Below, piece after piece: positions 19,615 to 62,274 of a stretch of 64,000 nt of DNA; within the stretch, counting starts at the first letter, position 1; every line of letters starts with the position of its first letter. The notes beneath the pieces were generated by a model that worked only from the letters and a program-made list of their open reading frames with translations, made no database searches and was not told where the DNA came from. The DNA comes from a virus: the IMG/VR virus record IMGVR_UViG_3300043410_001892, positions 183,145 through 247,144 of that record; one strand, given 5' to 3'. A program made the position numbers and the translations under genes.

Positions 19615-20028
19615 TTAAACCCCATATCTGTTTCGTTTTGCAGCAGCAACTGGGCTAATTTTATGAGTATCGGGCGATTCTGTTGATCTTTTAGATGATC
19701 CTACTGACTTTCTGCTAATGCCCATTTGTTTTGCTGCAGCATCGAGCATTTTATCATCTTCGTCTGAGAATGAGATTGTAACAAAATCACCACCTAATGA
19801 TCCTTTATGAGTTACTGCTGCTTTGTTAGGAGCACTTGAGAGCATCACACCGTACTTGTAAGCACGATATGGGTCGTTATTGTTATTTAATGCAGGATAT
19901 GCAGTTAAACCAGGAACTGCATCTCTTGCAGATTTATGTAGTTTATTCTCACGAATGATAACTTGCATCTCAGCAATGTCACGTTCTAGTTGTTCTATAT
20001 CTTCTTTTGTAATTTTTTTCATATTCAT
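19615..20028 (-). CDS. Hypothetical protein (137 aa)
   Basis: ORF overlapping the end of the 569-aa gene. Confidence 0.45.
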   Translation of the reverse strand: MNMKKITKEDIEQLERDIAEMQVIIRENKLHKSARDAVPGLTAYPALNNNNDPYRAYKYGVMLSSAPNKAAVTHKGSLGGDFVTISFSDEDDKMLDAAAKQMGISRKSVGSSKRSTESPDTHKISPVAAAKRNRYGV

Positions 20029-21734
20029 TCCAATGTACAGTTTAATCCCTCCCGTGTGGCTTGAAATAAAGTTTTACCGTCTACAGTAATTTCTTCATCT
20101 ACACCCGTTATTAGTTGGAAATTAATTTTGTCACCTAATTTAGCGTACTCTCTTGCTTGTGTGCTACTAACGTTTGTATCATTAGATCTGTCACCGCTAC
20201 TGACAAACTTTAATACTACGTGTTCTCTACCATTTGGTCCTCGTACATAATCGGTTGTACGAGTTGGACCACTGTTCCAGTTATTTAATGCAGTTTCTAA
20301 ACTATTATTACCTGGGCCTAACCTATCACTTCCTGCAATAAATGTCATGTGTCTATAGCCTTTATCGTATAGCCAACATGCAGCTTTCCATGGATCTGTT
20401 ACAAAATCTGACACTATAAATTCAGCATATTCCGGATGAATTTTCTTAATAAACTCAGTCTTAATATCGTAATTTAATGGATCATGTTTTGGATCACATT
20501 TGTTACTAGCAAAAATATACGCATGATTCTTACCAAGATCTACAGTTTGTTGCATTACTTTTGTATGTCCAATAGTCGGCGGATTCATTCTACCAAAGCA
20601 AAAAACTGCCATTGGCATATTGCTTTTTGTTTCAATTTCTTCCGCTGGTATTTTGTATTTTGAAAAGTTAGCACGACTAAATTCTAACCGATTAATGATC
20701 TTTAATTTATCATTACCGGCTCCTATTACATAGCCTTCGTGACTTATAATACTATTTATAATAGGTTGAACGGCACTGTGCAGTTGTTGCTCGTCAATCT
20801 GTCGTTTAATATCTAATTTAAGATTAGATATAGCACTCCATATTGCCCATAATCCTATTATACCTCTTTGAATATCTGCATTAAAACTGCCATCTTTTCT
20901 ACACAGTTTTTCTCGTACACTATGGGTAAATCGAGGCTGTGCAAATTCTAAAAACCGTTCAACAATATTAGTTTCCATATCACCAGAGTTTATCATTTTA
21001 GTAATAAATGGACTCATTGCTGCAATTATACATTTGCATTTAGCCGTAGTAATTTTAGCAATACAAGCGTCTACGTTGCTGGAATGCGTTGTTATTGCAT
21101 CTTGTGCGCGTAAAAGTAATGTGTTGTTTACTGTTATATTTGGTTTATTAGGCATTTGAGTTGCAATAAATGTGATATCTTTGCAATTTGAAAATACATC
21201 AAACCCTGTAATAGGTTCGTCGGCTGCGTTTAGCCCTGGAAAGAATGTGTGTACAGCAATACCGCCTACACTATTAGAAATTGATTGTCCTAAGTCACTA
21301 TTACAATCGACATGATATTCAACAGTGTTAGGTTTAAAGATAAATTGATTGTTAATACAAGTAGGAGTTCCTGTCCATAACAAATCACCCATATAATACG
21401 TGTCTGTTACTTTTGGAATAATATTTTCTAATGCAGGACGTAGAATATCTTCTTTAGCCCATAAGTCGCTACGTAATGAATTTCGAGAATTGTCATAATC
21501 TCGAATAGTTGTAAAGTCAAGTTTGCCAGCAGCGATTTGTTTAAACATGTGTTTATCAACAAATACTAAATTACCATTTGGATCTCGACCAAAAACTATT
21601 GCAGGAAAGCCATCCCATTTAATAGTTAATGTATCAGTGTTAAAAGAAAGACTACTTAGTTCATTAACTGCTCTCTGAGCTCCTTTAGATCCTTCTAAAA
21701 TAATTAGATCTTCAGGGTGTGCAATTCCTGCCAT
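20025..21734 (-). CDS. Two-domain nucleotidyltransferase: N-terminal ligase/capping-like KxDG domain fused to C-terminal NMNAT/cytidylyltransferase-like domain
   Basis: N-terminus has TIKWDGFPAIVFGRD (KxDG motif I). C-terminus has FGRMNPPTIGH ((H/T)xGH) and VSSTQAREY (ISSTxxR-like), both diagnostic of the NMNAT/cytidylyltransferase fold. Confidence 0.55.
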   Translation of the reverse strand: MAGIAHPEDLIILEGSKGAQRAVNELSSLSFNTDTLTIKWDGFPAIVFGRDPNGNLVFVDKHMFKQIAAGKLDFTTIRDYDNSRNSLRSDLWAKEDILRPALENIIPKVTDTYYMGDLLWTGTPTCINNQFIFKPNTVEYHVDCNSDLGQSISNSVGGIAVHTFFPGLNAADEPITGFDVFSNCKDITFIATQMPNKPNITVNNTLLLRAQDAITTHSSNVDACIAKITTAKCKCIIAAMSPFITKMINSGDMETNIVERFLEFAQPRFTHSVREKLCRKDGSFNADIQRGIIGLWAIWSAISNLKLDIKRQIDEQQLHSAVQPIINSIISHEGYVIGAGNDKLKIINRLEFSRANFSKYKIPAEEIETKSNMPMAVFCFGRMNPPTIGHTKVMQQTVDLGKNHAYIFASNKCDPKHDPLNYDIKTEFIKKIHPEYAEFIVSDFVTDPWKAACWLYDKGYRHMTFIAGSDRLGPGNNSLETALNNWNSGPTRTTDYVRGPNGREHVVLKFVSSGDRSNDTNVSSTQAREYAKLGDKINFQLITGVDEEITVDGKTLFQATREGLNCTLE

Positions 21735-22154: not shown

Positions 22155-22760
22155 CTAATTAAGAATCCTATCGATTGATAACTTAATATTGCCTAAATGT
22201 AATTTAACAAATAAAAGAGTGTGTTCTCCTTTAACATATAATTGTGAGCCAGCATCATATCTATTTGGTTTTACAGATAACAACCGTTCAGTTTTTGGTT
22301 GAAGTTTAATTTTGTCATTGTTGTTAGACCATTCTATAAACTCAGGATTAAGATTAGCTACTCCACCGAGCGTAACTCTAAAATCATATGGAGTATTTGG
22401 CATGTATACCATTCCTCGTTCTAATCCATCTGGTGGAATACCAATTGAATCAACAAACCTTGGTATTAAATCTCGAATAGCAGTAATATCATTGTAATTG
22501 TTAGTATAGATAATTAACGTTGGTAAATTAACTCTTGTTGCAAAGTTTTCCATATTCATTATATGTTCATATAGAAGAGTAGTTGCGTTATAATGATCTG
22601 GATAACGAATACTATCTATTTTAGAAACCATCTTAAGTCGTTTAGCATATTTAGACTTGTCATGTCCTTTAAAGATATCGCCATTGGCGAGAGTCAATAC
22701 GATATTGTATTGAAACTCGCCTTTGTACAATTTCTTAACAGTGGTAAACTTAATTGTCAT
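22155..22760 (-). CDS. Hypothetical protein (201 aa)
   Basis: ATGA-coupled to the upstream clpA-like gene. Confidence 0.5.
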   Translation of the reverse strand: MTIKFTTVKKLYKGEFQYNIVLTLANGDIFKGHDKSKYAKRLKMVSKIDSIRYPDHYNATTLLYEHIMNMENFATRVNLPTLIIYTNNYNDITAIRDLIPRFVDSIGIPPDGLERGMVYMPNTPYDFRVTLGGVANLNPEFIEWSNNNDKIKLQPKTERLLSVKPNRYDAGSQLYVKGEHTLLFVKLHLGNIKLSIDRILN

Positions 22761-25036
22761 ACTGCTTGATTAACTGCCCGTACATGATCAAGTGTTAGTA
22801 CTGGCCCTTTAGTAATTACTTTAGGTTTTGCTGTTAATGAAATCTTGTCATCAACAACACTAATTGTTAACCAACCGCCGTTTTTAAGATCACCAAACAA
22901 CATCATTTTAGCAAGATCGCGCTTGATCTCTTTATCAATTACACGATGTAGCGGTCTAGCACCCATCTTAGGATCAAAGCCTTTTTCTAACAACCAATTA
23001 GTTGCAGTTTTGTCAACTTTAATACGTACACCTTTGTCTTTAACTTGTTCACGAACTTCATCCATAAACTTGTTAATAACTTTAACCATTGAATCTTTAC
23101 CTAATTTGCTAAAGGTAATAATACCGTCAAGTCTGTTACGGAACTCAGGAGTTAAAAACTTCTTAAGTTCTGCATCTGAATAGTCTTTTTCTTGAGTACC
23201 AAAGCCAATTTGATTCTTTTCTGCAGCTTGAGCACCAGCATTAGTGGTTAGAATTAGTACAATATGTCGACAATCTGCTTGTCTGCCGTTTGAACCTGTA
23301 ATAAAACCATTGTCCATCATTTGCAATAGTACAGTTGATACATCCGGATGTGACTTTTCAATCTCATCAAACAGCAATACTGCGTTAGGATTTTCTTGAA
23401 TTTGTGTGATCAATAACCCTGCACTGTCTTCAAAGCCAACATAACCCGGAGGACTACCAATTAATTTACTAATACTATGCTTTTCTTGATACTCAGACAT
23501 ATCAAAACGTAACAATTTAGTACTCAAGTGTTTAGCAAGTGCCTTAGCAGTTTCAGTTTTACCGCAACCTGTAGGCCCCATAAACACAAAACTACCAATT
23601 GGTTTATTTTCAGGTTTTAAACCTGCTTGTGCAACCATGATCTTATCAACAATTTCAGTAATTGCAGTGTCTTGGCCAAATACTTCTGTTTCAAGGGATT
23701 CTTGTAATGTGGCAATAGCACCGGTTTCAGTTTGCATAATTTGTTCAATAGGCATATTGATCATTTTTGCTAATTCAAACTGAATTTCAGGCTCAGATAC
23801 GATTCTGTGTTCAGCAAGTTTTAAGTTAAATCGCGAACATGCACAGTCAATTAAGTCAATAGCTTTGTCAGGTAGCTTTTTATCCGCTTGATATTTAACA
23901 GATAATTTAATTGCAGCCTGTAATGCATCGTCTTTGATTTTAAGTTTATGATGTCCTTCGTAGTATTTCTTAATACCTTTAAGAATCTGCAAAGTCATTT
24001 CTTGTGTAGGTTCATCAACAGTAATACGTTGGAATCTACGCATCAATGCACGATCTTTCTCAAAATGCTTACGATATTCATCCCATGTAGTTGACGCAAT
24101 AACTTTGATGTTACCTTTACTAAGTGCAGGTTTCATCATATTAGCCAAGTCATTAGATGAATTACCTGAAGCACCTGCACCACTAATCATGTGTGCTTCG
24201 TCGATAAACAATACGCATTTGCCTAATTTTTGTAGTGCTTTGATTACTTGTTTAAAGCGTTCTTCAAAGTCGCCTCTGTACTTAGATCCTGCTAACATTG
24301 CAGCAATATCAAGATTGTACACTGTATAATCTAATAAGAAATCTGGCACTGCTTCGTTGACAATATTATAAGCAAGCCCTTCAGCAATTGCAGTTTTACC
24401 TACACCTGGATCACCTACCATAATAATATTATTTTTACTACGACGACCTAATGCTAGTGCAATATGCTCTAACTCGTCTTCTCTACCAATAACAGGATCA
24501 ATCTTTTTATTCTTAACTTCTTCATTTAAGTTAGTAGTATAAGATTGCAACGCCTTGTTAGTTGATTGATTTTTATTATCACCTACGTCATCGCCCATGT
24601 CAGTTGAATTCTGCATGTATTCGTTGAACTTTTCTTTAGTGATATTTACTTGTGATATATAGTAAAATGCCCATGTGCGCTTTTCACCTAACATTGCTAA
24701 GAAAAAGTTAGATGGTTCTATTTTTTGCCCACCATTAAACAATACCTGTGTAAATGATCTATTCAACACACGTTCAACTGCTTGTGTTTTTTTAGGTTTA
24801 ACAACAACGTCAACTGTAGTAATTTCTTGACATTTAGTTTGTAAATGATTAAGTAATAAATTTTTCAAATAGTTTACGTCTGCCCCAACTCCTTGTAAAG
24901 CATTAGTAAATGAACTATCTTCCATAAGCATCGAGCATAGAACATGTTCTAATGTTACATACTCATGGTGCATATTTTTTGCAGAGATAATAGCTTTGTC
25001 AAAAATCTCTTGTAATTTTTCGCTTGGTTCAACCAT
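22757..25036 (-). CDS. ClpA/ClpB-family double AAA+ chaperone ATPase
   Basis: Two Walker A sites (IMVGDPGVGKTAIAEGLA and FMGPTGCGKTETAKALA), a Clp N-domain-like N-terminus, and ClpA-like length (759 aa). Confidence 0.9.
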   Translation of the reverse strand: MVEPSEKLQEIFDKAIISAKNMHHEYVTLEHVLCSMLMEDSSFTNALQGVGADVNYLKNLLLNHLQTKCQEITTVDVVVKPKKTQAVERVLNRSFTQVLFNGGQKIEPSNFFLAMLGEKRTWAFYYISQVNITKEKFNEYMQNSTDMGDDVGDNKNQSTNKALQSYTTNLNEEVKNKKIDPVIGREDELEHIALALGRRSKNNIIMVGDPGVGKTAIAEGLAYNIVNEAVPDFLLDYTVYNLDIAAMLAGSKYRGDFEERFKQVIKALQKLGKCVLFIDEAHMISGAGASGNSSNDLANMMKPALSKGNIKVIASTTWDEYRKHFEKDRALMRRFQRITVDEPTQEMTLQILKGIKKYYEGHHKLKIKDDALQAAIKLSVKYQADKKLPDKAIDLIDCACSRFNLKLAEHRIVSEPEIQFELAKMINMPIEQIMQTETGAIATLQESLETEVFGQDTAITEIVDKIMVAQAGLKPENKPIGSFVFMGPTGCGKTETAKALAKHLSTKLLRFDMSEYQEKHSISKLIGSPPGYVGFEDSAGLLITQIQENPNAVLLFDEIEKSHPDVSTVLLQMMDNGFITGSNGRQADCRHIVLILTTNAGAQAAEKNQIGFGTQEKDYSDAELKKFLTPEFRNRLDGIITFSKLGKDSMVKVINKFMDEVREQVKDKGVRIKVDKTATNWLLEKGFDPKMGARPLHRVIDKEIKRDLAKMMLFGDLKNGGWLTISVVDDKISLTAKPKVITKGPVLTLDHVRAVNQAV

Positions 25037-25070
25037 TATTAGATCCTTGTGTAGTAGTTAATAAAGCAAT

Positions 25071-25099
25071 ATTATAAAGTATTTTAATTATAAAGTCAA
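25071..25099 (-). promoter_or_regulatory. Sigma70-type early promoter (TTGACT-17-TATAAT) upstream of the clpA-like gene
   Basis: Reverse strand reads TTGACT ttataattaaaatactt TATAAT, 34 nt upstream of the ATG. Confidence 0.55.
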
Positions 25100-25947
25100 A
25101 TAATTTGACTGTTTATTTGTTGCAATTGTGCCACCAATTCTGGTTTGGTAACTGCAGGGGTTTTTATTTTTACAACAGTAACAAATCTTCCAATCTGTCT
25201 ATTGTGTAAATTAGTAAACCCGCCGTGCGCTTTTGCATATTCTGTACCAGGTTGTACTCCTGGTTTAATAGTAATGTTATGTTTTTCACCTATTAAGTTG
25301 GTAACTTCTTTAACACAACCAATCATTGCTTCAATTGGTGAAATTTCAATTGAAGTAAATATGTCATTACCTTCGCGTCTAAAATTAGGATCAGGTATTA
25401 CATTTATAGTTACATTTAAATTACCACGTGGAACACCCGGCTGTGAGTTATCTCCTAAGCCGTCATATCTAATAGTATCTCCGTTATCAATACCTGCAGG
25501 TACGTTAATTACAACATGCTGTGGTTCTCCGCTAGGCAAGTTAATATTAGCATCTATTTGTTTTCCTTTAAATGTATCTGCTAATGTGACTTGAATTTGT
25601 AAATTTAAATCTCGGTTACGGCGACCTTGTTGGAATCCATGTGCAAAGTGTTGTCCAAAAATATCATGCATATTAAACTGGAAGCCTCCACCGAAACTGT
25701 TACTAAATGGTCCTCCTCCACCAAATCCACCAAATCCACCAAATGGATTTCCATTTTGTTGCATATCATATTCTTGGCGTTTTTGTGGATCACTTAATGT
25801 ATCATATGCTACTGAAATATCTTTAAATGTAGCTTGGTCTCCACCTTTGTCGGGATGATGTTTATTTGCTAATGAACGATATGCTTTTTTAATATCGTCT
25901 TGTGATGCATCTTTTGATACACCTAATTTTGAATAAAAGTCTGTCAT
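25096..25947 (-). CDS. DnaJ-like J-domain co-chaperone
   Basis: N-terminal J-domain YSKLGVSKDASQDDIKKAYRSLANKHHPDK with the HPD motif, followed by a Gly/Phe-rich linker (GGFGGFGGGGPF). No CxxCxGxG zinc finger seen. Confidence 0.8.
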   Translation of the reverse strand: MTDFYSKLGVSKDASQDDIKKAYRSLANKHHPDKGGDQATFKDISVAYDTLSDPQKRQEYDMQQNGNPFGGFGGFGGGGPFSNSFGGGFQFNMHDIFGQHFAHGFQQGRRNRDLNLQIQVTLADTFKGKQIDANINLPSGEPQHVVINVPAGIDNGDTIRYDGLGDNSQPGVPRGNLNVTINVIPDPNFRREGNDIFTSIEISPIEAMIGCVKEVTNLIGEKHNITIKPGVQPGTEYAKAHGGFTNLHNRQIGRFVTVVKIKTPAVTKPELVAQLQQINSQII

Positions 25948-25985
25948 GATTAATCTCTCATAATAAAAGGTCAGTTAGTATAGTA

Positions 25986-26014
25986 ATTATACTATACTAG
26001 AACTGACCTGTCAA
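25986..26014 (-). promoter_or_regulatory. Sigma70-type early promoter (TTGACA-17-TATAAT) upstream of the dnaJ-like gene
   Basis: Reverse strand reads TTGACA ggtcagttctagtatag TATAAT with exact 17-nt spacing. Confidence 0.55.
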
Positions 26015-26022: not shown

Positions 26023-26268
26023 TTACTTACGTTTTTTAACTACTTTTTTTGGTGCAGGTTTAGCTGCTGGTTTTACAACTGGTTTTTTAGGTGGAACTTT
26101 TTTACCTTCAAACTTCTTGTGAACTTTGATAGTTTTACATTGTTTCTTACCTTTTACAGTTTTGCAAACTTCTTTAGTAGTTGGACCAACGTGTCCTTCT
26201 TCATGATTAGCATACGCAACTGGAGCTGCTAACATGCCAATAATAATTAATGATAATAGTTTTTTCAT
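26023..26268 (-). CDS. Small secreted Lys-rich protein (81 aa)
   Basis: N-terminal signal-like MKKLLSLIIIGMLAAPVAYA followed by a KKP/KPA-rich basic tail. Confidence 0.45.
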   Translation of the reverse strand: MKKLLSLIIIGMLAAPVAYANHEEGHVGPTTKEVCKTVKGKKQCKTIKVHKKFEGKKVPPKKPVVKPAAKPAPKKVVKKRK

Positions 26269-26279: not shown

Positions 26280-26744
26280 TTATGATTTTGGAATTGGTTT
26301 AGCTGCAGGGCGTTTTCTTGCCACTTTAGGAGCTTCTTGTACAACAGGTTCTGGAGCTGGCTCTGGAATAACAACTGGTTCTGGTGCTATCACAGGAGCT
26401 GGTGCAGGCGCTGCTGGTGGAACATATACCGGTGCAGGAGCTGGTGCTGCTGGCGGTGGTGTAAAGCTGCTAAAGTCAGGTAAACTCGGACCTGCAATTT
26501 TTTCTTGTGTACGACCGTGTGCTGAGATACCTAATACAACACCCATTGCAATGTGATAAAGACCGCCACCTTGTAATGTTAGTGGTTGCCACATATCTAA
26601 GTTTTGGCCTGGGTTATAGTATTGTAATATATTGTATAAGATTGGTCCTAAAACGAAGTCAAACAAACATGTAACCATGTATGTCATTGCCATCATTGGG
26701 CGCCAGTATCTTGTCATAAAATCCTCTTTATTTTGTTCTTCCAT
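26280..26744 (-). CDS. Membrane protein with two predicted TMDs and Pro/Ala-rich tail (holin candidate)
   Basis: Hydrophobic segments MAMTYMVTCLFDFVLGPILYNIL and LYHIAMGVVLGISA, followed by PPAAPAPAP repeats. Lies downstream of the lysis genes. Confidence 0.4.
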   Translation of the reverse strand: MEEQNKEDFMTRYWRPMMAMTYMVTCLFDFVLGPILYNILQYYNPGQNLDMWQPLTLQGGGLYHIAMGVVLGISAHGRTQEKIAGPSLPDFSSFTPPPAAPAPAPVYVPPAAPAPAPVIAPEPVVIPEPAPEPVVQEAPKVARKRPAAKPIPKS

Positions 26745-26759
26745 GTACGTTCCTTGTAT

Positions 26760-27029
26760 TTAAATCGCTTTTGCTGCGGTTGATGCAATTGTGATTGCAA
26801 TTTCTATAATTTTATTCAATTCTGCTTGTGCGTTAAGTGCTGCAGCATCTTCTATGATAATCCCTGTCGTAGAAATGTCTGATAATAATTCTTCATATTC
26901 TGAAGCACTAAGTTTTCCATTTTGATAATTGTTAGTTAGATCTTTAAGTTCTGTAGCTGCAGCCTCTAATGCATGACTTTTAACTGCATCAAATCCACTT
27001 AAACTATTTAAAATGTCTTGTGTATTCAT
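26760..27029 (-). CDS. Hypothetical small protein (89 aa)
   Basis: ORF in the lysis-region operon. Hydrophobic C-terminus. Confidence 0.4.
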   Translation of the reverse strand: MNTQDILNSLSGFDAVKSHALEAAATELKDLTNNYQNGKLSASEYEELLSDISTTGIIIEDAAALNAQAELNKIIEIAITIASTAAKAI

Positions 27030-27430
27030 CTTGGTTTACCTCCTATAGTTTGGGCAATTGTAGTTGCCGCTGTTGTTAAAATATCCATTTTTTGTTTACA
27101 ATAAGCTTCACTTATCTTTTCTGTTTTATGATATCGAACATGTAACGGTTGTGTTAAGTCCATTAGTGATTCTGATAATTTTATAGTAGCTTTATTTTCT
27201 GGTATGAATTCAGCATAGTTTTTAAATTCAATACTTTTTAAATATATACGATCTACAATAGGAACCATTTGTTGTTGGTTGCTGCAGAACTCGGAGCTTA
27301 TTTGAGATAAGCTACGGATATCGTTAATTAGTTGATATTCATTTTGATCAAACTTAGCCATAAAATATGCATCCATTGCAGCGCAACCAGATAGCATACT
27401 AAGTATAATAATTGCTAATACTTTTTTCAT
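27026..27430 (-). CDS. Putative lipoprotein (134 aa)
   Basis: Signal peptide with lipobox LSGC (MKKVLAIIILSMLSGCAAMD). Confidence 0.5.
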   Translation of the reverse strand: MKKVLAIIILSMLSGCAAMDAYFMAKFDQNEYQLINDIRSLSQISSEFCSNQQQMVPIVDRIYLKSIEFKNYAEFIPENKATIKLSESLMDLTQPLHVRYHKTEKISEAYCKQKMDILTTAATTIAQTIGGKPR

Positions 27431-27726
27431 TTTACGTCCTCATATATTTTCTTTTGTTGCGTGTACCAATCTTGCCAAGCAAGATATCGTTCTCGTAGTT
27501 CATAGTAAGAACCGTAATTCTCACTAGCATTTTCTAATATATCACTTAGTTCCGGGTTAGTTTGAGATAATGTCTTTAACGTCGGTGCCGACTCCATCAA
27601 GGATGGAGGTACCTTTGGGAAGCTCATTGTTAACGGCACTGTTGTAGAGCACCCTTGCAACATCAGGAACAGTACACTCGGCATTGATAATTTCTTTGTG
27701 TTCTTGAATAATCTTTTTTGTTGCAT
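27427..27726 (-). CDS. Outer-membrane spanin (o-spanin, Rz1-like lipoprotein), overlapped with i-spanin gene
   Basis: Signal plus lipobox LMLQGCSTT. Pro-rich. Encoded in an alternate frame over the 3' 170 nt of the i-spanin-like gene. Confidence 0.55.
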   Translation of the reverse strand: MQQKRLFKNTKKLSMPSVLFLMLQGCSTTVPLTMSFPKVPPSLMESAPTLKTLSQTNPELSDILENASENYGSYYELRERYLAWQDWYTQQKKIYEDVK

Positions 27727-28057
27727 ATACTTTTTCCTTGATAACTTTTACTTTTTCTACTACACGAGTTTCAATTTGAACATTAACTTCTTTAGATTGT
27801 TGTTCAGCTATTTCTATTTTTTGTTCAAGTTCTGCTACACGATTACGCCATTCCATTTCAACACCGTAACCACCTTTAAAGTAAACACCGGCAACTAATA
27901 AGATTGTTGACAGTATATTTAACAATAACTGATATTGGTTAAGGAATGGTATGTACTTAATAAAAAATCCTGCTATAGTACCAATAGCACCTAATAGCAG
28001 GACTGTATTAACTACCCAAAGTAAATATGCATCAGGGAGGAAATGTAAGAAAAACAT
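27557..28057 (-). CDS. Inner-membrane spanin-like protein (N-terminal TMD(s) plus coiled-coil). Alternatively a holin-like protein
   Basis: N-terminal hydrophobic helices followed by a charged coiled-coil (RNRVAELEQKIEIAEQQSKEVNVQ). Immediately downstream of the endolysin, with an embedded lipoprotein gene. Confidence 0.5.
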   Translation of the reverse strand: MFFLHFLPDAYLLWVVNTVLLLGAIGTIAGFFIKYIPFLNQYQLLLNILSTILLVAGVYFKGGYGVEMEWRNRVAELEQKIEIAEQQSKEVNVQIETRVVEKVKVIKEKVYATKKIIQEHKEIINAECTVPDVARVLYNSAVNNELPKGTSILDGVGTDVKDIISN

Positions 28058-28677
28058 TATGCACTCAATACTTTGATTGCGTTAGCATAGTGGTGTTTTC
28101 TGTCTTCTAACCCAATAGTTCCGCCATTAATTCTTTTTGTTAAAGTAACAATGTCACCTTTGTCTGCCCATTGATTTAAATTATTAGTTTCCCAGAACCA
28201 GCAAGCACTTTGTACTGCACCTTCAAATGTTTCTAAATATTCAATTGTTTCATCGATATCCATTTCTAAGCTTTCTGCAAAACGAGTATAGTTGTCTTTA
28301 CCGGTTAATTGGATAAGCCCACGCCCACAGAATTTAAATCCGTCACCAGTTGATTCATCGCCATTCCCCATACGACCGCCATACACTTTGCTTGCAATTT
28401 TTTGTGGATTTCCAGCATATGATTCTGCTAATGCATCGGTTGGGAAATATTTAGGGAATACTTTTCTCAATGTTGCTGCACGATAGTTTAAGTTTTCTTT
28501 CAATGCAGTGTAGTTTCCACTTTCGTGAGCAGTTTGAGCTAAAAATGCAGCAACTCGTTCTTTGCTCCAGATATCGTATTCTGGTAAGATTGAGCTTAAT
28601 GCATCATACCATTCTGCGATGTAAGGGTTGCCTGGTATAATTTTTGCTAAGTGTTCTTGTGTAAATGTAAATGCCAT
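28057..28677 (-). CDS. Endolysin, glycoside hydrolase family 19 (chitinase-like)
   Basis: FLAQTAHESGNYTAL...GRGLIQLTGKDNY are GH19 catalytic blocks. Start chosen at ATG 28675-28677 (MAFTF) because it follows GGAG. The ORF track's alternative start is 28704. Confidence 0.8.
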   Translation of the reverse strand: MAFTFTQEHLAKIIPGNPYIAEWYDALSSILPEYDIWSKERVAAFLAQTAHESGNYTALKENLNYRAATLRKVFPKYFPTDALAESYAGNPQKIASKVYGGRMGNGDESTGDGFKFCGRGLIQLTGKDNYTRFAESLEMDIDETIEYLETFEGAVQSACWFWETNNLNQWADKGDIVTLTKRINGGTIGLEDRKHHYANAIKVLSA

Positions 28678-29405
28678 TATTTTTTCTCCAATGCTACAGC
28701 CCATCCGCTGTTTTCAAATATAAATGTATTACCAACTTTGGTAATATTGTAGTTTCCAATTCTTTTTGTAAAGTACATTACTTCTGCAATAGCACTTCCT
28801 TCTATTATAATTGGACCTTGTATAGAATTATATACTTCAGATTTAGGTCCACTTGTAATAATATCAAAAGTTATAGTATCACTGTACGGTGTTTTAAATC
28901 TAAGTGACTCGTTAACAATATCAACTTCTGAAAAACTTTCTTTAAAGAAGGTACTAAAATTATCTAAACCGTGTTGTTTAGTTTTTTCTTCGTATGCTGC
29001 AGTGTCAGTAGGTATTGCTGATTTTAAATTTCTTAAAGTTGCGTCTTTGCTCTTAAAATTTTTAAAATATCGAAATCTCATATCAGACATTCCAGTTAAT
29101 AATTCTATACCGTTTAGTAATTCAAGAATGTTTGCCGGAGCTCTACTATTTCTTTCTAATTCAACAAAAACTTTATAAGTTCCATCTTCTGTTTCGCCAG
29201 GACTAACATCTGCATCAAGTACAAAGTCATATCCCATTTCAACAAAGTTTTCTAAATCGTTTGCAGGATCTTCATGATCAACTGTAAATGAGAGTACAAT
29301 TACATCTTTGTCATTTCCGATTTTACTTTGGTAACAATCAATTTCAAAAACTTTTTTTACTAATTCTCGAAGATCTTTTGCGTGTAAACTTTCATTGATA
29401 CTCAT
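28677..29405 (-). CDS. Hypothetical protein (242 aa)
   Basis: ORF in the late operon upstream of the endolysin. Confidence 0.5.
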   Translation of the reverse strand: MSINESLHAKDLRELVKKVFEIDCYQSKIGNDKDVIVLSFTVDHEDPANDLENFVEMGYDFVLDADVSPGETEDGTYKVFVELERNSRAPANILELLNGIELLTGMSDMRFRYFKNFKSKDATLRNLKSAIPTDTAAYEEKTKQHGLDNFSTFFKESFSEVDIVNESLRFKTPYSDTITFDIITSGPKSEVYNSIQGPIIIEGSAIAEVMYFTKRIGNYNITKVGNTFIFENSGWAVALEKK

Positions 29406-33687: not shown

Positions 33688-34071
33688 TTAGTACATTGGT
33701 TGACTAAAGTCAAACGTTTGTTCTGTGGAAGGATTTGATAGTCCAATATTAACATCGGACGGCAAATGATTAGAAACTGCTAAAATTGCCTTATTGTCAA
33801 CTCGTCTAACGGTGACAATATCACCGTTTTCTTTTTTAACTTTAACGCCGCGTGTCCAACGACCGTGTTCAATTAAAATCCAGTCACCAACGCTTACATC
33901 TTGTTGTTCTGGACCAATTTTATATACTTGACCCCATCTTGGTCTAATACCTTCGGATGTTCCGTCGTCACTTTTAATAATAATACCACCTGCTGATACT
34001 TGTTCTTCAAAGTTCATATCAGTAATTAATACATTATCGTGTATAGTTTCTAATGTTTCTGTTATTATCAT
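33688..34071 (-). CDS. GroES-like co-chaperonin (T4 gp31-like)
   Basis: 127 aa. SAGGIIIKS...GQVYKIGP...VGDWILI pattern resembles the GroES mobile loop and core. Confidence 0.55.
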   Translation of the reverse strand: MIITETLETIHDNVLITDMNFEEQVSAGGIIIKSDDGTSEGIRPRWGQVYKIGPEQQDVSVGDWILIEHGRWTRGVKVKKENGDIVTVRRVDNKAILAVSNHLPSDVNIGLSNPSTEQTFDFSQPMY

Positions 34072-40194: not shown

Positions 40195-43100
40195 ATGGCA
40201 AAAAAAATAATTGAAATTGGTGTTCAAGGGAATGACGGTACTGGCGACAGTATACGTGAAGCGTTTAGTAAAGTTAATGATAACTTTAGTGAAATTTATG
40301 CAGTATTTAAGAGTGAGGGTAAAATTAATTTTAGTGATCTATCTGATGGATGTACTTACATCAGTGATCAGCTTATCACCGCAAGTCACGATGGAACTAC
40401 GTTAATTGCAAGAGATTTAGTACCAGGGAATGGTATATTCATATCTGCAACATCGTCGGCTATTACAATTGAAGCACAAGCAGCTTCATTATCAAATGAT
40501 TTAAAACCAGAGATATCAGCACCATTTAATGCTAATAAATTTGCAATTGGTCGTTTGTCGGATCCAAGCGAAGACCTTGTAGATCTTTTTAACTTAGTAT
40601 ACGATATACCAACTACATTAGATGAGTTACCAGTAACTGTGGGATATGCAAATAGACGATATGCACAGTTAACTGAATCAGGTGTTATTGGTGTTTTAGA
40701 AAATGGGGTTATAGTTCCAAGTCCTATACAAACAAGAGCAGAACCTACAACTCCTGATATTACAAACCCATTGTACGATCCAACATTAACTGGTAATTAC
40801 TTGTCAACTGAAGTATTACCACGTAAGGACGTAGTATACCGTGGTGGTGATAAGATGACCGGTGCGTTAATCTTAAATGATCACCCAGGAGCAATGGCTG
40901 GAACAGTTGGTGCAATGTTTGATTCTGATCTACAGGCAGCAACTGCATTTTATGTAGATAACAAAACATTCACAAGTAATGTTAATTTATATGTTTCTGC
41001 GGCATCAGGTGACGATTTGCAACTTAGAACACCTGCAGGGAAAGAAGGTAGATATTGGAATTATGCGTTTAAATCTATCGGTGCTGCATTGTTACATGCT
41101 GAGTCATTGATTAATTTAGCAAGTCAAGAACCTGGTCCTTACAAACAACGTATTTCTTATACACTTGGAGCAGATCAAACATTTTCAACAGTTCAACGTG
41201 TAAGATTAACCGGTGGTGAATCTACAACACCTGGCTATGTTGCTGCATTTAACTTATTACAAGCTAATCGGTCATTTATTCAATCAGAAACAATTTCATA
41301 TATTAATAAAAAGTATGTGAATAAATTTTCTTATAATAAAACACTATTTTCAAACAGAATAGAGTTTTTAATTAAAGCAGTATGTGATGATTTATTGTTA
41401 GGTGCTACTGATCCAGATACATCAGTACCTGGAACAAATTATAGATCAATTCGGTCTGCTGTAAAATATTTACATGATGATCCATATTTAGAGCAATCGA
41501 TTCAATGGTTATCTGCTATTGAGTTTATTAGAAATCAAATTATTGAGTTTACATACGATGGACCTGCATTGCAAGATTATACTACTCAGTTAGTTACTGC
41601 ATTATGCTATGATTTGATTTTTTCTTCAAACTATCAAAGTATTCAAGCTGGTATTGCATTTAAAAATGCCGGAACTAAAGTAAGTGCAGAACAATTAGGT
41701 TCAATGCTTACTATTAAACCTATTAACATTTTATCTGTAACAGTTAACGGTGGTGTTGTAACACTTAATTTCTTAACTCAATCATCGGCATTCTTATTAA
41801 ACAGTGAAATATTAATTGATGCAGTGTTTACAAACGTTGACGATGAAACAAATGAAATCATAATTAAACCGAGTGAAACTGTTAACAATGTTACTACTAT
41901 TACTTCTGTTACTATTGATTCTGCATCAACTGTTTCATCTGTTAGTTTTAGAAAAGGTGGATATCCATTTATTAACGATGGCACATACACTGTAACAGGG
42001 TCGTTTGATCGTAAGAACTTAATTAATCTGTTGTTATTAACACCAGGTATTACAACTTATCCAAGTTCTGCAGTTGATATTACTGCTAATGCTACAATAG
42101 TGCGTGATATAGTGTTAACTGGGACTATCCCAGAACCGGTTATGCCTACACCAAACAATCCACCAGCAGGGTATAATGTTCTTGGTCATGTTCATGCAAA
42201 ATCGTTGTTATTAGATAACATTTCATTTATTCAAGCTGAAGTAGTTGCTTATCTTAGTTCAGAATTCCCAGATGTATCATATAATCGAGAATTATGTTTG
42301 CGAGATGTGAAATATATCATTTGGAGTTTAGCATATGATTTAACATATGGCGGTAATAGTCAAAGTGTATATGCTGGTAAAAAATATTGGAATAATTCAA
42401 CCAACTTTATCATTGCATCTGAAAAAACCGCATGTGTAAGCGTAATTAACTATATCAATACATTGGCTCAAGCAGTCATTATAAACAGTGCGACTACTAC
42501 GACCTATCAACAATCAGTTAGACAGTACAGAAATGATACATTAACTAATGGTAATGTAGCATCAGCATCAATTGCAAGCAATGTTGCTACGATTGCAGCA
42601 ATTGTGACCAGTTTAAGTAATGTTCCTGCTATTATAAATCCAAGTGTTACAACTGGTTTAGCAGAAATGCAAACTATTTTTGATAGAATTACTGCAGATA
42701 TTGGAAATTACACAGATGACACAAAATCTACATCGACAATATGGTATTTAGATAGTTATTTCCCAGTAATTAAGACATTAACTGATAAAGATAAGATTAA
42801 TAACTTGTTTGATCAGATAATATCTATTGTATCCGGTGGTGTTTATCCGTCAGTAGTACCAGTTTATCCAATTGTAACTATTCCAACACCAGTTAACGTA
42901 AATGTTACTGATGCATGGATTGTTCAAGCTACCGGATTGCTTGATCAAACAGCAATTAATACCATTGCACAATCTACAAATTCTTATATTGCGTCAGTTT
43001 ATACAACAATTACCTATAATTCAACTACTTTACAAAATGATATTAAAGATTTGTTGTTTGCAGCAATTTACGATTTAAAATATGGTGGTACATTGGCTAG

Positions 43101-46100
43101 TTTTGATGTTGCAACTACATTTACATTGTTAGGATCTAATGTTAATACTCAAAAAACAATAGTTCAAGCTGCAATTGATCATGCATGGTCTCTTACAAAT
43201 ACTTTATTAGTTGGAAATATAACTGGAGATACTTCAAATCATACAGTTAACAAATTGCGTGAAAAATTCACATTTGCTTCTTCATATTTTAGCAATAATC
43301 CGCCAATACAAGGCGACGATATTACAGTATCATTATTCTCAACTACTACATATGACAATGCTACTAAATTAAGAACCTTAATTTTAAATAGTTTATCTAC
43401 TATTTCAAACGATACCTTAACTTACATTGATTCAGTGTTTAAAGGTGGGTTTACTTATGATGAATCTTTATGTTATAGAGATTTAGGTTTGATTATTGAT
43501 GCAATGTCAATTGATTTAATCACTGGTGGTACATATCAATCTATAAATGCAGGTAAAAGTTTTTATAAAAACTCAAGTGCAAGAGCAGTTTCAATTGGTA
43601 CACAATATACACAGTCATTTGATGGTATAATGTTTGCTCAATCAGTAGCATTGCAAGTATTAAATAAACAACTTAAGAATAGATACCAATTATTACCGCA
43701 AATTACACAATTTGCAACAACAAATCCATCTAATTTAACATATATTAGCACAGGCGAATTACCAACTGATAGTATCGGTGTTACAGGCGATCGTTCATTG
43801 CCAGTTTCTCAAAATGCAATTGACACATTTGTTGCAAACATGTTAAGATTAACTGATATTATACAGTACGGTATAAGCGTTGCAGCAACACCGTCGTTTG
43901 GTTCAGGTATTTGGAATTTATTAATTGACAATGGCGGGAGAGGCTATGTAGATCAAGGTTCTCCGTCAAATAACGACTTATTCCCAGCTAAAGTAATTGT
44001 AGGTGTTGGTACTTCATCTATTGCTGCATCCAATGCGTATGGAAGTATTGTTACATATACATACGGCAGTGATATTTCCGGTGCACCTTTAGTGTTAGGC
44101 GATGTTGATACACTTCAAGTACGGTTAACAAAGCCTGGATTCTTTAAATCTGCTTACACTTTAGTAGATCTTAACTGGTCTTTTGTTGGAACTACTGTTA
44201 CAGTTACTAAAGCTAACCATACAATTACACAAGGTACTCGTATAATTGTAAACTTTGCCCAATTCTTTGGGTCTGGATCTAATGCCCCAATTGGAACTTG
44301 GATTGTATCGGCAGTAACAACTAACACATTTTCATTTGTAACAAGTTTAGCACCAATTGGAACTAGTACATTAATGACTGTAACGGTTCAAGTAGGTGAA
44401 CAAATTGAATTTGGTGAAACTGTTCGTGATTTGCAACTAACAATGTTCATTGAAAGTGGCATTTATTACGAAGATTATCCATTGAGAGTGTCATCAAACA
44501 TATCTATTAAGGGTGACGAGTTCCGTAGAACTATAATTAGACCAAAAGATCGTATTAGTCAAAGCCCATGGCGTAAGATTTTCTTCTATCGTGATGCAAT
44601 TGTTGATGCTTTAGAGGTAGGTTTAATTGATTATACCGGAACTAACTATGCTCCGAGCGGAATTACAGCGTCTTTAGACGGTGTAACTAATAAAATTGTG
44701 GTAACATTGAGCGGTAATTTCCAAGCACCATTGAGTTGGGTTGGTAAAGTGTTTGCTGATACTAATACTACAAACGGAAATGCAAAACGCGGTAAAGCTG
44801 TAGTTGACTCTGTTAGTGGTAATACTATAAATTGTACAGTAATTTACCCATTTAGCGTAAGTGGATTATATGCTGCCGGTAGTTGGAAGCTATTTGGTAC
44901 TATAAATTACGGTCGTCACTACTTAACTAACCCATTAGATGTAACAAGTACGGCTAAAAACAACAAAGATATCGACGTTTTATTATGTAATGAAGGTACA
45001 CGTATTGTTGGTGTAACATTCCAAGGTCATGGCGGGTTTGCTATGGTACTTGATCCAGAAGGAAACATCAAAACTAAGTCACCGTATATTCAAGAATGCG
45101 CAAGTTTCACACAAAGTAACAATTATAAGAGATTTGCAGGTGGACAATACATTGACGGATTTGCAGGAAGACTATACGGTAACATCATAGGTGTTTCTAA
45201 TGACGGTATTACTGTAACTGTACAAGGTGAAACTAATAGTGGTTTAGATATTAGACCTCCACAACCACCATGTTCGTTCTATGTACGTGGAAAACGTTAT
45301 CAAATTGATGATATTGTAAGTTTTGATGCAACTACTGCAACTGTAGTATTAACATTGGATAAAACTACACCGTATTTACATACAACATCTGGTGTTTTAA
45401 CATACGACGATGTTAAAGCAAAACGTGATATCGGTTATGTTTTGGATGCAATTGCAAGCGATGCTGCATTAGGTACAACATATCGTTCAGTACATGCTGG
45501 TCGTTCTTTCTTAAAAATATATTCTAGTCGTTTAGTGGGAGATTTACAAGATCTTACTATTGCAGGTATTAATAAAGCATTAGAATTGTCAAATACAACA
45601 CTTAGCGGTAGTACATATTCAAGTATTAGAACTCAATATGCCACTAATATTGCTATTATTACTTCTATGATTTCAAATGGAGTTAATGCAACACCAACTA
45701 TTGTATGGTCTACTAGTTCAACAGCTGATGATAACTTAGCTCGTAATATTATTCAAAACAATAAAGCATTTATTAAGTCAGAAATTAGTGCATATATCGC
45801 ACAATACTTTACTTTAGGTGATTACCCAAGATACAATGTATTAACAAGTGAACGAGATGTTGGTTATGTACTTGACGCTATGACATATGACATGTTCTAT
45901 GGTGGTGATAGTCAAACAAAAGATAGTGCAGAAGCATTCTTTTACAATAATACATCGTATATACCTGATGAAAATGTAATTTGTTCAGCTGCGTATACCA
46001 GATTAAAAGCTGTATTAGCTGCTGTAGTTGCGGGATCACCAGTTGTTGTAAGTTCAGGTAACAGTGTTTCACAAATACTAACAAATCCGCCAGCATCATC

Positions 46101-49100
46101 AGCCGGTTATGTTACTAAATTAAACACACTGAGCGACATTGTTATTGATTATATTGCAGACGGTAGTTATAGTTCACCAAGAACAAGTGCTCGTACATAT
46201 CCATTGTTACCAGTAGGTACAACTGGAACTACAGCTTATAACTTATTCTTTGATACCGGAACAAATCCAGCTACTAAAACAACTGCTGAAACTACTATTG
46301 AAACTTCTGTATCAACTTTCTTAAAAAATGGTGCAAACTTAAGAATTAATATTGAAGCTGGCGGTAACCGTTCAATGTTAGGTAACGATTTTGCTATGTT
46401 TAATGATTTAGCATATGGTATTTTAGCTACTAATGGTGCATTTACTGAACAAGTATGTACATTCACATATTATGCGCATACCGGGCTTTGGGCAAACAAT
46501 GGTAGTAACTTACGTGGTGTAGGATGTTCAAATACATTTGGTAACTACGGTATGAGAGCATCCGGTTATGACGTTACTGAATTACCAGATAGTACAAATC
46601 TTGCTAATCATATGATTCAAACTGCTCGAGTATATAAGCAAGGCATAGTTGCAAACGAAATGATTCCAACCGCAACTGTTCCGGCTATTGCAGTGTGGAT
46701 CATTGGGTATGATTATATTCCAACTAATGGTTCAATTATGGAAATTAATCATTCTGTTAATAGTGGAACTATCAATAGTTACACTGTAACATCGGCAGAA
46801 TATACTACTATACAATTTGCAAATCAAACTGTTCTTAAATTAAATTTAAACACAACTGACACAGGTTCTGGATCAGGTTTATCAAAAGAATTGTACGATG
46901 GACAAATGGTTTCTATTAGATCACTTAAAAATGTTAAGTTTAATAATGTTGATAATGTTAAACCAACAAGACCGTCAACTGCGTTACAATATGTTGATAA
47001 TTTAAATGATGTATATCGTATCATTGCTTACAATTTAACAGAATCAACTGGTGATATGTTAGGTGATAACATTGCAATATTACAAAGTGATAACTCATTT
47101 GCATATTACAATTTTACAACTGATCCTAAATCAATAATAATAGGTGATCCTGATTCAAGTATCTATACTACTGTAGCATTAAACGGAGGCGCAACTACTA
47201 GTACATCATTAACTGTTACAAGTGCAACAGGTATTTTACAAGGTCACATAATTAGTGGTGTTGGCTTTACTGGACAGATAATTACTAACATTAACGGTAA
47301 TGTTCTTACATTAAGTTCAGCACCAAATGCCACACCATATGGCACTGTGTATTTTTCATTCAAAACACAAGGTTCTAAAGTAGGTGATACTAAAATTGCA
47401 GTTGATCAAGTTTCTCAATTAAGAATAATAGATCAAATTAACAAAGGCACTTATATTACAGCATGGAATGGTAGATTACATCGTGTATTGAGATATGTAA
47501 CTCCAACATTTGCAGTGTCTAAAACTTATGCATCTTACAACAGTGGTACTTCTACAATGGTAGTAACTGGTTCAGCAGGATCGATTACTGCTGGTATGTT
47601 AGTTATTAAACGAAATGCAACAACCGAAGCACTTGAATTTACCGGTACTGTAGTGTCGGCAACTGTAGTAGGTCTTACAACAGAAGTTGTGATATCAACT
47701 CCAAATCAAGTAGTAACTCCGTTAACTCAAGGCCCTGTAACATTTGGTGTAACTGCAAACGGTTATATTGAACTATCACCAAATGCATTTATAAACAATG
47801 CTGCTAATGGTGTTTCTGTTAATGCAATGACTTATCTAAGTTCAGACTTCCAAGTTGATAGTATTACTGCTAAAGTAGTAACTTTTGATATACCATTTAG
47901 TAAAGATAATTTATTACCAAAAGTTGATAGTTATCTAACATTTGCAGGCAACTCAAATGCAAGTTATAATGGCGAATATCAAATAACCAGGGTAATAAAT
48001 CAAACATTAGTAACATTGTCAACTATTACTGATTTTGTAGTAGGTATGGTTGTAACTTCACAAGTAACTACACAATTTATTACAAACTCAGGCGGTGTTT
48101 CAACATTTACATCAACTGCAAATCATAACATGGTATTAAATGATCCAGTAACAGTAAATGTTTCAAGTAATATGAATGGTCTTGTTCAAAGCACTACGTA
48201 TTATGTTAAAACAATTCCAACTTCAACATCGTTTACATTAAGTGCGACATCAGGCGGTACTGCATTAGGTAATTTTGGTATTGTTGTATCAGCTGGGGTT
48301 GTGATTATTTCGATAGCAACTAATTTAGGTGTATCAACGTTTACAACAAACACATCACATGGTTTAGTTTCTGGTAATACATTTGCACCAAATATCAGTA
48401 CAAACAGTTTTGTTGCTGGAACTACCTATTATGTTAAAGATGTAACATCAAATACGTTTACATTAAGTGCAACATCAGGTGGTTTAGCGTTAGGAAACTT
48501 TGGAACTACTAATGTAATTTCATCGTCAGTATCATTTAAAACTCCACAGACTGCTATTATACCCGGCGGTAGTGCAATTATTCAATCTGTTTCATCTGAT
48601 CCATTAGTTAAAACAATTGTAATCAGTCCTGCAGCATGGGTTCCTGCAAACTCGCCAATTAGAGCATCGTTAGCTGCAAGTGTAATGAGTATTTCAATTA
48701 CATCAGGTGGTTCAGGATATACATCTGCACCATCTTTAACAATTGAAGGTGGTTCTCCAACTCAACGAGCAACTGCAACTTGTACAATTGTTAACGGTGA
48801 GATTAATGAAGTTCGTGTAATTATTAAAGGTAGTGGATATGTTTCTATACCGTCAGTTACAGTTACACCTGCGGTTGGTAATATTCCAACTTCAACTGCT
48901 GTATTATCTGTAAACTTATCAACTGCTGTATTGCGTGATGCTACTTCAACAACTGGTGTGTCTACAATACAGATGTCTGCATTGTATCCAACAGATCCAG
49001 GTACATTTGGAACTGTTACATCGATTACAGTATCTGCTGAAACTACAACTACTACTACATATAATTCAGTTAGTGGTTATTCAATGGCTTATACAGTATC

Positions 49101-60962: not shown

Positions 60963-60963
60963 G

Positions 60964-61761: not shown

Positions 61762-61773
61762 TGTTTTTATCCT

Positions 61774-62274
61774 TTAGTTATTTACGAATTGTTGTAAACT
61801 TGGTGGAGAATAAGATTCTGGTTTTAAGATCTTACCATCCTCTCTTTTGATAACTTTACCTGTAGTTGGATCTACTTTAGACATATTTGATCGAATTACT
61901 TCATTCCATGCACCTTCTGCATCTACACCTAATGAATGTAATGCACCAACTGTAACAACTAAAATATCAATTAGTGCATCAAGTTGTTCAACACGATCAT
62001 TATCATCAACTGCAGCATGTAATTCACCGACTTCTTCTTTAATTAAATCTAAGTACATATTATATTGTGATTCACTGTAAGTGTCAACTGATTGATCACC
62101 AGCTATCATAAATGTTTTTTGATCTGTAAATACGTTTGTCATATAATTCCTTTTTTTAGTTGTTTCTATTAAATCTTTAATTATTTCTTTGTCGACTTCT
62201 TTCATTATTTCTTCGCCTAATATACGAGTTAGTTCTCTTTCTTGCAGTGACCGGTAATGTGGTTTAAGTTTCAT
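61774..62274 (-). CDS. MazG-like all-alpha nucleoside triphosphate pyrophosphohydrolase
   Basis: EEVGELHAAVDDNDRVEQLDALIDILVVTVGALHSLGVD...AWNEVIRSNMSK matches the EExxE...D metal-binding helix pattern of MazG/HisE-type NTP-PPases. Confidence 0.65.
   Translation of the reverse strand: MKLKPHYRSLQERELTRILGEEIMKEVDKEIIKDLIETTKKRNYMTNVFTDQKTFMIAGDQSVDTYSESQYNMYLDLIKEEVGELHAAVDDNDRVEQLDALIDILVVTVGALHSLGVDAEGAWNEVIRSNMSKVDPTTGKVIKREDGKILKPESYSPPSLQQFVNN

Follow-up and report, generated by a model that had tools for sequence, protein, structure and literature searches.

Why should a giant phage carry a protein unfoldase of its own, and why should this gene lie next to one for a J-domain protein? 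The question is raised by a stretch of 64,000 nucleotides (nt) of viral DNA, hereafter called the window (IMG/VR virus record IMGVR_UViG_3300043410_001892, positions 183,145 to 247,144). Its minus strand encodes a ClpA-type protein of 759 amino acids (aa) in the open reading frame (ORF) 22757..25036 and, directly upstream of this, a J-domain protein of 283 aa at 25096..25947. An earlier reading of the DNA from its letters alone (the sequence-only reading) had placed both ORFs exactly. Genome papers mention Clp unfoldases and J-proteins of phages, of which we know no functional study. The pair is a conserved module that is shared by PA5oct, Atu_ph07 and Phosso, relatives that can be cultured, so that the reason why giant phages carry their own proteolysis and chaperone machinery can be tested in existing systems. 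Our analysis favours, with a probability of roughly 0.6, a reading in which the ClpA-type protein would be the unfoldase of a ClpAP protease, with a ClpP of either phage or host origin, and would act beside a class-B J-protein that recruits the DnaK of the host, giving a protein quality control run by the phage.

The clpA-type gene encodes all parts of a double-ring unfoldase. Pfam recognises the domains Clp_N, AAA, AAA_lid_9, AAA_2 and ClpB_D2-small, and the protein divides into an N-domain (residues ~1-143), a variable linker (144-165), the AAA+ domains D1 (166-430) and D2 (431-640), the D2-small domain (641-725) and a variable C-terminal tail. The Clp_N match (33.0 bits) covers residues 19-65, the second repeat being visible only through the alignment to Escherichia coli ClpA. 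The NCBIfam model of ClpA, TIGR02639, aligns in a single stretch (848.8 bits; residues 5-726 against positions 2-733 of the 734 in the model), whereas the models of ClpB, ClpV, ClpK and ClpG align in two pieces, implying a protein of the ClpA type that lacks the middle (M) domain. The structure of E. coli ClpA (1ksf) is collinear with residues 8-735 (E=1.6e-191), and the two proteins are of nearly the same length (759 aa in the window, 758 aa in E. coli). The sequence-only reading had left the choice between ClpA and ClpB open; the ClpA type stands, and a ClpB-type disaggregase is ruled out by the absence of the M-domain and the presence of a ClpP loop.

Both AAA+ domains retain their motifs. 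D1 has the Walker A motif GDPGVGKT (208-215), the pore loop KYRG (252-255), the Walker B motif VLFIDEAH (275-282), sensor-1 ASTT (314-317) and the Arg-finger RRF (333-335), while D2 has the Walker A motif GPTGCGKT (487-494), the pore loop GYVG (531-534), the Walker B motif VLLFDEIEK (553-561), sensor-1 TTN (597-599), FRNRLD (632-637) and the sensor-2 motif GARP (692-695). The motifs and the ClpA model confirm the full-length double-ring AAA+ protein with two Walker A sites that had first been described; loss of the pore loops or Walker B residues had been named as the sign of an inactive relic, and both pore loops and both Walker B motifs are present. Each structural feature of ClpA that we looked for was found, and unfoldase activity is predicted for the protein.

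The loop by which ClpA would dock on ClpP, which the same reading had singled out as a feature to look for in D2, is predicted at residues 610-612, where IGF aligns to I617-G618-L619 of E. coli ClpA. Relatives of the protein, 74-95% identical to it, occur on metagenomic contigs of up to 375 kilobases (kb), and our comparisons within this clade cover 80 loci and 81 ClpA sequences, 56 of the latter distinct. The catalytic, pore-loop, sensor and Arg-finger motifs are unchanged across all of these sequences. The IGF tripeptide is likewise kept in 81 of 81, amid loop residues that vary on either side of it. Between the window and locus L001, an unsaturated pair (synonymous divergence, dS, of 0.36), the ratio of non-synonymous to synonymous substitution rates (dN/dS) of clpA is 0.066. 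The window's clpA is an intact gene under purifying selection and no relic.

The neighbouring J-protein has a J-domain (Pfam DnaJ, 78.3 bits, residues 3-61) with the HPD motif at residue 31, followed by a linker rich in glycine and phenylalanine (the G/F linker; 49% G+F in residues 62-112, with a clade mean of 33%) and a DnaJ_C domain (106.2 bits, residues 115-264). It holds a single cysteine and no CxxCxGxG zinc finger. The same division is seen in the 68 clade orthologues, all of which have HPD and none CxxCxGxG. Since the zinc finger is absent while the J-domain, G/F linker and DnaJ_C are present, we assign the protein to class B (type II, CbpA/Sis1-like) and not to DnaJ in the strict sense. 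The DnaJ model TIGR02349 reaches 187.9 bits against a cut-off of 377.2, in two stretches that flank the missing zinc-finger region, and the NCBIfam model of the curved-DNA-binding protein CbpA aligns from end to end at 113 bits, under its cut-off. The gene had at first been called DnaJ, a name that holds for a J-domain protein adjoining clpA but not, on the zinc finger and the model score, for DnaJ proper; we keep dnaJ below as the name of the gene. Its dN/dS is 0.077 for the window and L001. Neither dnaK nor grpE was found in the 64-kb window.

The source of the window is an uncultured jumbo phage of ~370 kb, a member of the supergroup of RaK2, Atu_ph07, Phosso and PA5oct. This placement in the RaK2-like supergroup is supported by the DNA polymerase, which is nearest to that of Sinorhizobium phage Phosso (49.5%), followed by Agrobacterium phage Atu_ph07 (45%) and the RaK2/121Q group (~43%). 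The window encodes a clamp loader and a DNA polymerase of the T4 type, besides fibre genes and giant ORFs, and a contig of 372,173 base pairs holds an ORF identical to orf201, the gene that follows clpA in the window. GenBank phages include no close DNA match to the window, and an exact-protein look-up of its ClpA returned no identical entry on record; look-ups of three further proteins of the window gave short Logan contigs and nothing else. When the species genomes of 185,579 bacteria and archaea were scanned for ClpA peptides specific to the clade, no relative of the clade-type ClpA turned up, and the scan therefore gives no clue to the host. The clade is abundant, uncultured and part of the RaK2-like supergroup.

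A full-length ClpA- or ClpB-type chaperone had been described as very unusual in a phage genome, a claim that does not survive comparison. Full-length ClpA homologues were found by tblastn in 95 GenBank phage records, which include the PA5oct-likes, RaK2, 121Q, PBECO4, Atu_ph07, Phosso and Vibrio phages, and the clade by itself accounts for full-length homologues on 476 or more IMG/VR viral contigs. The family is that of PHROG 4871 ('ATP-dependent protease'), which the window's ClpA matches end to end at 818.6 bits. ClpA and DnaJ of RaK2-like jumbo phages figure in two published accounts. The Atu_ph07 paper lists phage ClpP, ClpS, ClpX and ClpB with an adjacent DnaJ, and invokes the removal of aggregates for ClpB and DnaJ (PMC6102473), and Iyer et al. 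catalogued ClpA/ClpX, ClpP, ClpS and DnaJ in jumbo phages (PMC7824862). The dnaJ-clpA pair is a known conserved module of RaK2-like jumbo phages and no rarity. One candidate for the closest phage ClpA, the match H1 from 'Acinetobacter phage MD-2021a' (L083, CAKLQF020000008.1), was rejected as bacterial chromosomal DNA; it carries ilvA, rpiA, argC, clpS-clpA and aroF, and its ClpA, ClpP, DnaJ and CbpA matches are not to be counted as phage genes.

What our comparison adds to the published lists is the breadth and strength with which the dnaJ-(def)-clpA order is conserved, its link to retention of the IGF loop and the co-occurrence of ClpP in an uncultured clade. All 74 clade loci with enough upstream sequence have dnaJ followed by clpA. 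Within the clade the DnaJ proteins are 45-88% identical and the ClpA proteins 74-95%, and ClpA ranks with the best-conserved genes that the clade has. The adjacency extends to PA5oct, Atu_ph07 and Phosso, and the J-proteins of PA5oct and Atu_ph07 combine a J-domain and DnaJ_C without a zinc finger. In 34 of the 80 clade loci, as in Phosso, dnaJ and clpA are separated by a gene for peptide deformylase, def (Pfam, 148.8 bits; examples are L031:9520-10008, L062:9514-10017 and L281:3451-3969). No def was found between 25036 and 25096 or elsewhere in the window, whose subclade is without the deformylase.

The docking loop reads IGFG in the four lineages in which clpA is linked to dnaJ, namely the clade of the window, Phosso, Atu_ph07 and PA5oct. 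In RaK2, 121Q and Vibrio phage 2.275 there is no adjacent J-protein and the tripeptide is IGV or IGM. This correlation between IGF and the J-protein comprises seven lineages only, and the RaK2-like phages with an IGV or IGM loop still encode a divergent ClpP. The phage ClpA lineages are ~40% identical to one another and to the one bacterial sequence available, a level at which their monophyly is not resolvable.

Each gene of the pair has a consensus promoter of its own, as the sequence-only reading had it; that reading also took the promoters to be early, a timing that they may have. The sigma-70-type promoter of dnaJ (26014..25986, minus strand) reads TTGACA-17-TATAAT, a 12/12 match 39 nt ahead of the ATG, and that of clpA (25099..25071, minus strand) reads TTGACT-17-TATAAT, an 11/12 match 35 nt ahead of the ATG, with its -35 element overlapping the stop codon of dnaJ. 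The motifs recur among relatives: 46 of 62 have a 12/12 site in the 100 nt ahead of dnaJ, and 35 of 76 have one of at least 11/12 in the 100 nt ahead of clpA, the background being that 1.2% of random 100-nt windows attain 11/12. The window as a whole has fifteen sites of at least 11/12, of which six are perfect and all six have a 17-nt spacer; these lie on the minus strand with their first -35 base at 63962, 62087, 33666, 26014, 13529 and 2894. By our own estimate from base composition, rather than the output of a tool, ~0.06 such perfect sites with a 17-nt spacer would be expected per window. Eleven of the fifteen lie on the minus strand, and nine of these are placed 30-70 nt ahead of an ORF. 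Weak promoter-like sites as a whole are no more numerous than in shuffled sequence, whereas the strong sites exceed chance. The perfect motif is found 66 times in 0.99 megabases (Mb) of clade loci and 42 times in 0.49 Mb of freshwater phage ClpP loci. PA5oct has TTGAC/TATAATA promoters and depends on the RNA polymerase of its host (PMC7318152).

The dnaJ promoter overlaps an imperfect palindrome of 40 nt followed by a T-run (25961..26008, minus strand; GGTCAGTT-CT-AGTATAGTA / TACTATACT-AACTGACC, then TTTTATTA). The -10 box lies in the loop of the palindrome, and the predicted fold of the region has an energy of -29.4 kcal/mol. The element looks like an intrinsic-terminator-like hairpin, here predicted for the upstream gene 26023..26268 and overlapping the dnaJ promoter. 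A shared operator or a heat-shock element like CIRCE (controlling inverted repeat of chaperone expression) is ruled out, since the hairpins at other promoters are unrelated to it: the promoters at 33666 (clamp-loader) and 13529 also have hairpins that overlap them or lie just upstream, with sequences of their own. The sole Rfam match at the dnaJ promoter palindrome is at chance level.

PA5oct encodes a full-length ClpP, 46% identical to that of E. coli, at 13 kb from dnaJ-clpA, and ClpP homologues are also found in Atu_ph07, Phosso, RaK2, K64-1, the 121Q-likes, GAP32, CBB and others. Within the clade, the contig IMGVR_UViG_3300047560_000724, with a ClpA 76% identical to that of the window, has ClpP ~30 kb upstream, in the order ClpP, a 242-aa ORF, DNA ligase, a MazG-like gene and homologues of the 265-aa and 402-aa genes of the window. 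From the ligase to the 402-aa gene this is the order of the window from 63910 to 59754, and the window's ligase homologue begins 90 nt from its right edge. In the nearer relative L253, which was reached by anchoring on a Bax1-I-like gene with a best match of only 57% identity, ClpP directly precedes the ligase. One contig thus establishes a phage ClpP in the clade, and every cultured relative has one as well. For the window's own genome a phage ClpP is a prediction, and we put the chance that it encodes one elsewhere at roughly three in four. The earlier remark that no ClpP was seen is true of the window itself; ClpP is encoded by relatives that share the module and by the clade contig, and the impression that ClpP is missing probably stems from where the window ends.

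Two further observations concern ClpP and the region past this edge. The ClpPs of PA5oct and of freshwater jumbo phages (L087:3001-3669, L136:2992-3612 and L248:9992-10612) share insertions of ~10 residues in total that follow the region of the catalytic His, relative to the ClpPs of E. coli and Atu_ph07; the GenBank record of the PA5oct protein bears the note 'ESI-MS/MS'. The Logan contig L171, which is 100% identical to the window over 59800-64000 and reaches 1,470 nt further, encodes beyond the edge two membrane proteins, one Bax1-I-like and one of 94 aa, and holds the end of a further gene. The first of these, a 222-aa protein of the Bax1-I / YccA family (L171:685-1353), lies ~150-820 nt past position 64000, upstream of the ligase; on related contigs its homologues, ~40-57% identical, are found near ClpP. 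YccA is a modulator of the FtsH protease in E. coli, and the gene may be another protease-related neighbour.

The architecture of the protein, its intact motifs, the invariant IGF loop, the low dN/dS, the conserved module and the presence of ClpP in relatives together support the reading of the ClpA-type protein as the unfoldase of ClpAP. We infer the following course, from ClpP docking and DnaK recruitment to the timing of expression and the identity of the substrates. The sigma-70 RNA polymerase of the host would transcribe dnaJ and clpA, each from its own strong consensus promoter. ClpA would assemble as an ATP-driven, hexameric double-ring translocase, and its IGF loops would dock on the ClpP tetradecamer to give ClpAP, the ClpP most probably being encoded by the phage outside the window and otherwise by the host. 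Through its HPD motif the J-protein would activate ATP hydrolysis by host DnaK, to which it would hand non-native clients. ClpA, the J-protein, the GroES-like protein described below and, in many relatives, the deformylase would then form a phage-borne set for protein maturation and quality control, which would keep productive a phage proteome that is very large and prone to aggregate, and could remove unwanted proteins.

A number of findings weigh against this reading. By tblastn with the ClpPs of E. coli, PA5oct and an environmental phage and with two ClpS proteins, neither clpP nor clpS was found in the 64-kb window; both are also absent from the flanks of 10 kb on either side of the 80 clade loci (~1 Mb), and the 1,470 nt that L171 adds past the right edge hold no ClpP. 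No link was found between the abundant freshwater phage ClpP type (L136) and the 350-375 kb contigs of the clade, the promoter style and sample co-occurrence of L136 not being specific enough to tie it to them. The IGF loop, moreover, is required for docking on ClpP and is no proof of it. The score of 848.8 bits with TIGR02639 is below the equivalog cut-off of 993.15, and NF008263 gives 716.1 bits against a cut-off of 1350; by the NCBI criterion the protein is a divergent family member and no equivalog. Among the ordered parts the divergence is greatest in the N-domain, ~27% identical to the bacterial one against ~51% for D1 and D2, and the choice of substrates and adaptors may differ from that of cellular ClpA. 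The literature searched contains no functional study of a phage ClpA or DnaJ and no expression, proteomic or genetic data on either.

The same genes could be put to other uses. ClpA might act without ClpP, unfolding or remodelling proteins by itself and, with the J-protein and host DnaK, folding, disaggregating or assembling parts of the virion such as the 4041-aa and 1788-aa proteins of the window. E. coli ClpA alone activates P1 RepA, and such a chaperone would agree with the close linkage of old standing that clpA has with a J-protein gene and not with clpP or clpS, with the lack of clpP in the window and the clade flanks, and with the giant structural-type ORFs and the fibre protein with an S74 chaperone domain nearby. 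It is, however, hard to explain without a ClpP partner why IGF should be invariant in 81 of 81 sequences amid drifting flanks; the relatives encode ClpP, and this ClpA is without the M-domain that couples ClpB/Hsp104 to DnaK. To our knowledge no mechanism ties ClpA directly to the J-protein/DnaK system, and we hold a purpose independent of ClpP to be possible and, on balance, unlikely. Rather unlikely, too, is a protease for host takeover or counter-defence, in which the divergent N-domain would retarget ClpAP to defence proteins, regulators or antitoxins of the host and the J-protein may titrate or redirect processes that depend on DnaK/DnaJ, including phage sensing. The N-domain is the least bacterial-like ordered part of the protein (~27%) and yet is conserved in the clade (mean identity 67%), and consensus sigma-70 promoters would fit expression from the start of infection. 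Phages do reprogram host Clp proteases, one example being an adaptor-like protein of SPO1 for ClpCP (PMC6873191); phage sensing by bNACHT25 requires host DnaJ (PMC12169576); and a role in counter-defence has been speculated upon for phage J-proteins (PMC12619734). Against this, the module is linked to no gene for a substrate or an adaptor and to none related to defence; its neighbours are a lysis cassette, ORFs without assigned function and the deformylase. Counter-defence genes, moreover, usually vary and turn over fast, whereas ClpA is strongly conserved across phages of Pseudomonas, Agrobacterium and Sinorhizobium hosts.

That the gene was recently captured from a host, or is decaying without a role specific to the phage, we regard as highly improbable. 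Genes of cellular type in phages are often transient morons, and some 'phage' matches in the databases are bacterial DNA, as H1 with its clpS-clpA illustrates; but the window's ClpA is at most ~43% identical to any bacterial ClpA seen, the species genomes scanned hold no relative of it, its motifs are intact at a dN/dS of ~0.07, and hundreds of contigs retain the same synteny and promoters. A bolder extension of the ClpAP reading would join dnaJ-(def)-clpA and a phage ClpP into one self-contained triage pathway, in which the J-protein, via host DnaK, would select substrates for ClpAP and the deformylase would expose N-termini on which the choice between keeping and degrading a protein would depend. 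A hint in this direction is that, among the cultured phages examined, the IGF loop is kept exactly in those lineages that have an adjacent J-protein, and the J20-Hsp70-ClpC route of chloroplasts is a parallel for the hand-over from a J-protein to a Clp protease; we nevertheless think a single pathway of this kind improbable. The three roles suggested in the sequence-only reading, namely remodelling of host proteins, dismantling of defence complexes and folding of giant fibres, may each apply, our results speaking neither for nor against them.

The genes on either side of the pair are also partly conserved. Downstream, the ATG of orf201 (22155..22760, minus strand; 201 aa) overlaps the clpA stop codon (ATGA). 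This fast-evolving gene follows clpA in 76 of the 80 clade loci, at 25-74% identity and with a dN/dS of 0.2-0.6, and matches no Pfam or PHROG family. Its AlphaFold2 model, with a predicted local distance difference test score (pLDDT) of 72, has a fold that matches only uncharacterised phage proteins, one of them from Atu_ph07, and generic alpha/beta folds. Past orf201 come a 122-aa ORF and then a fusion of DUF6267 (134.7 bits) to a cytidylyltransferase-like nucleotidyltransferase (20025-21734, minus strand; 569 aa), which is found downstream of clpA in 61 loci at 22-93% identity.

Directly upstream of dnaJ lies a lysis cassette (26280-28704, minus strand), in which 28057-28704 codes for an endolysin of the GH19 type, 27557-28057 for a signal-peptide or membrane protein and 26280-26744 for a holin-like protein whose tail is rich in proline and alanine, while 27026-27726 holds lipoprotein-like ORFs. 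Further off, on the plus strand, are the large ORFs already referred to: one of 4041 aa without a Pfam match (40195-52320), a 683-aa protein of fibre or spike type with a C-terminal intramolecular chaperone domain, Peptidase_S74 (52331-54382), and a 1788-aa protein with an fn3 domain (54386-59752).

The co-chaperonin-like gene that had been noted some 8 kb from clpA as resembling gp31 or GroES is borne out by the profile searches. It encodes 127 aa (33688..34071, minus strand) and matches Pfam Cpn10 at 29.9 bits (cut-off 21.1), PHROG 931 'head morphogenesis' at 5.7e-16 and PHROG 3188 GroES at 4.5e-8. In 23 clade loci with flanks of sufficient length the gene lies ~8 kb upstream of clpA, and PA5oct has a small 'chaperonin' gene at the equivalent relative position. 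No groEL was found in the 64-kb window.

Among known systems, E. coli ClpA (PDB 1ksf, 6w1z) shares with the window's protein its domain layout, the Walker A and B motifs, the KYR and GYVG pore loops, the Arg fingers and sensor-2. A docking loop of the form [LIV]-G-[FL] occupies the same position in both, as IGF in the window and IGL in E. coli. The setting of the gene differs, for bacterial clpA stands in a clpS-clpA operon, as seen in L083, whereas the window's clpA is preceded by dnaJ and not by clpS. The J-protein resembles E. coli CbpA and yeast Sis1, which likewise combine an HPD J-domain, a G/F linker and DnaJ_C without a zinc finger. The J-domain protein of phage RB43 is without the full client-binding region of DnaJ_C, unlike the window's protein with its complete class-B architecture. 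The J-protein of RB43, a T4-like phage, is a precedent for one that works with host DnaK, as cited in PMC12619734.

The pairing of a double-ring Hsp100 protein with a J-protein recalls ClpB/Hsp104 and its genetic association with DnaK-DnaJ. ClpB, however, has the coiled-coil M-domain that couples it to DnaK and no ClpP loop, and the window's ClpA shows the reverse. T4 gp31 and GroES have a counterpart in the window's Cpn10 gene, with its weak scores to Cpn10 and the gp31-type PHROG, which would need the GroEL of the host and which lies 8 kb off, outside the dnaJ-clpA unit. The ClpAs of the RaK2-like phages (Phosso gp195, Atu_ph07 gp292, PA5oct EST35_0298, RaK2 ORF069 and 121Q gp581) have the same full-length architecture, at 38-44% identity. 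Three of these phages, Phosso, Atu_ph07 and PA5oct, agree with the window in having dnaJ immediately upstream of clpA and an IGFG loop, and Phosso has the dnaJ-def-clpA trio of the 34 clade loci, where the window, itself without a deformylase, has the pair of dnaJ and clpA.

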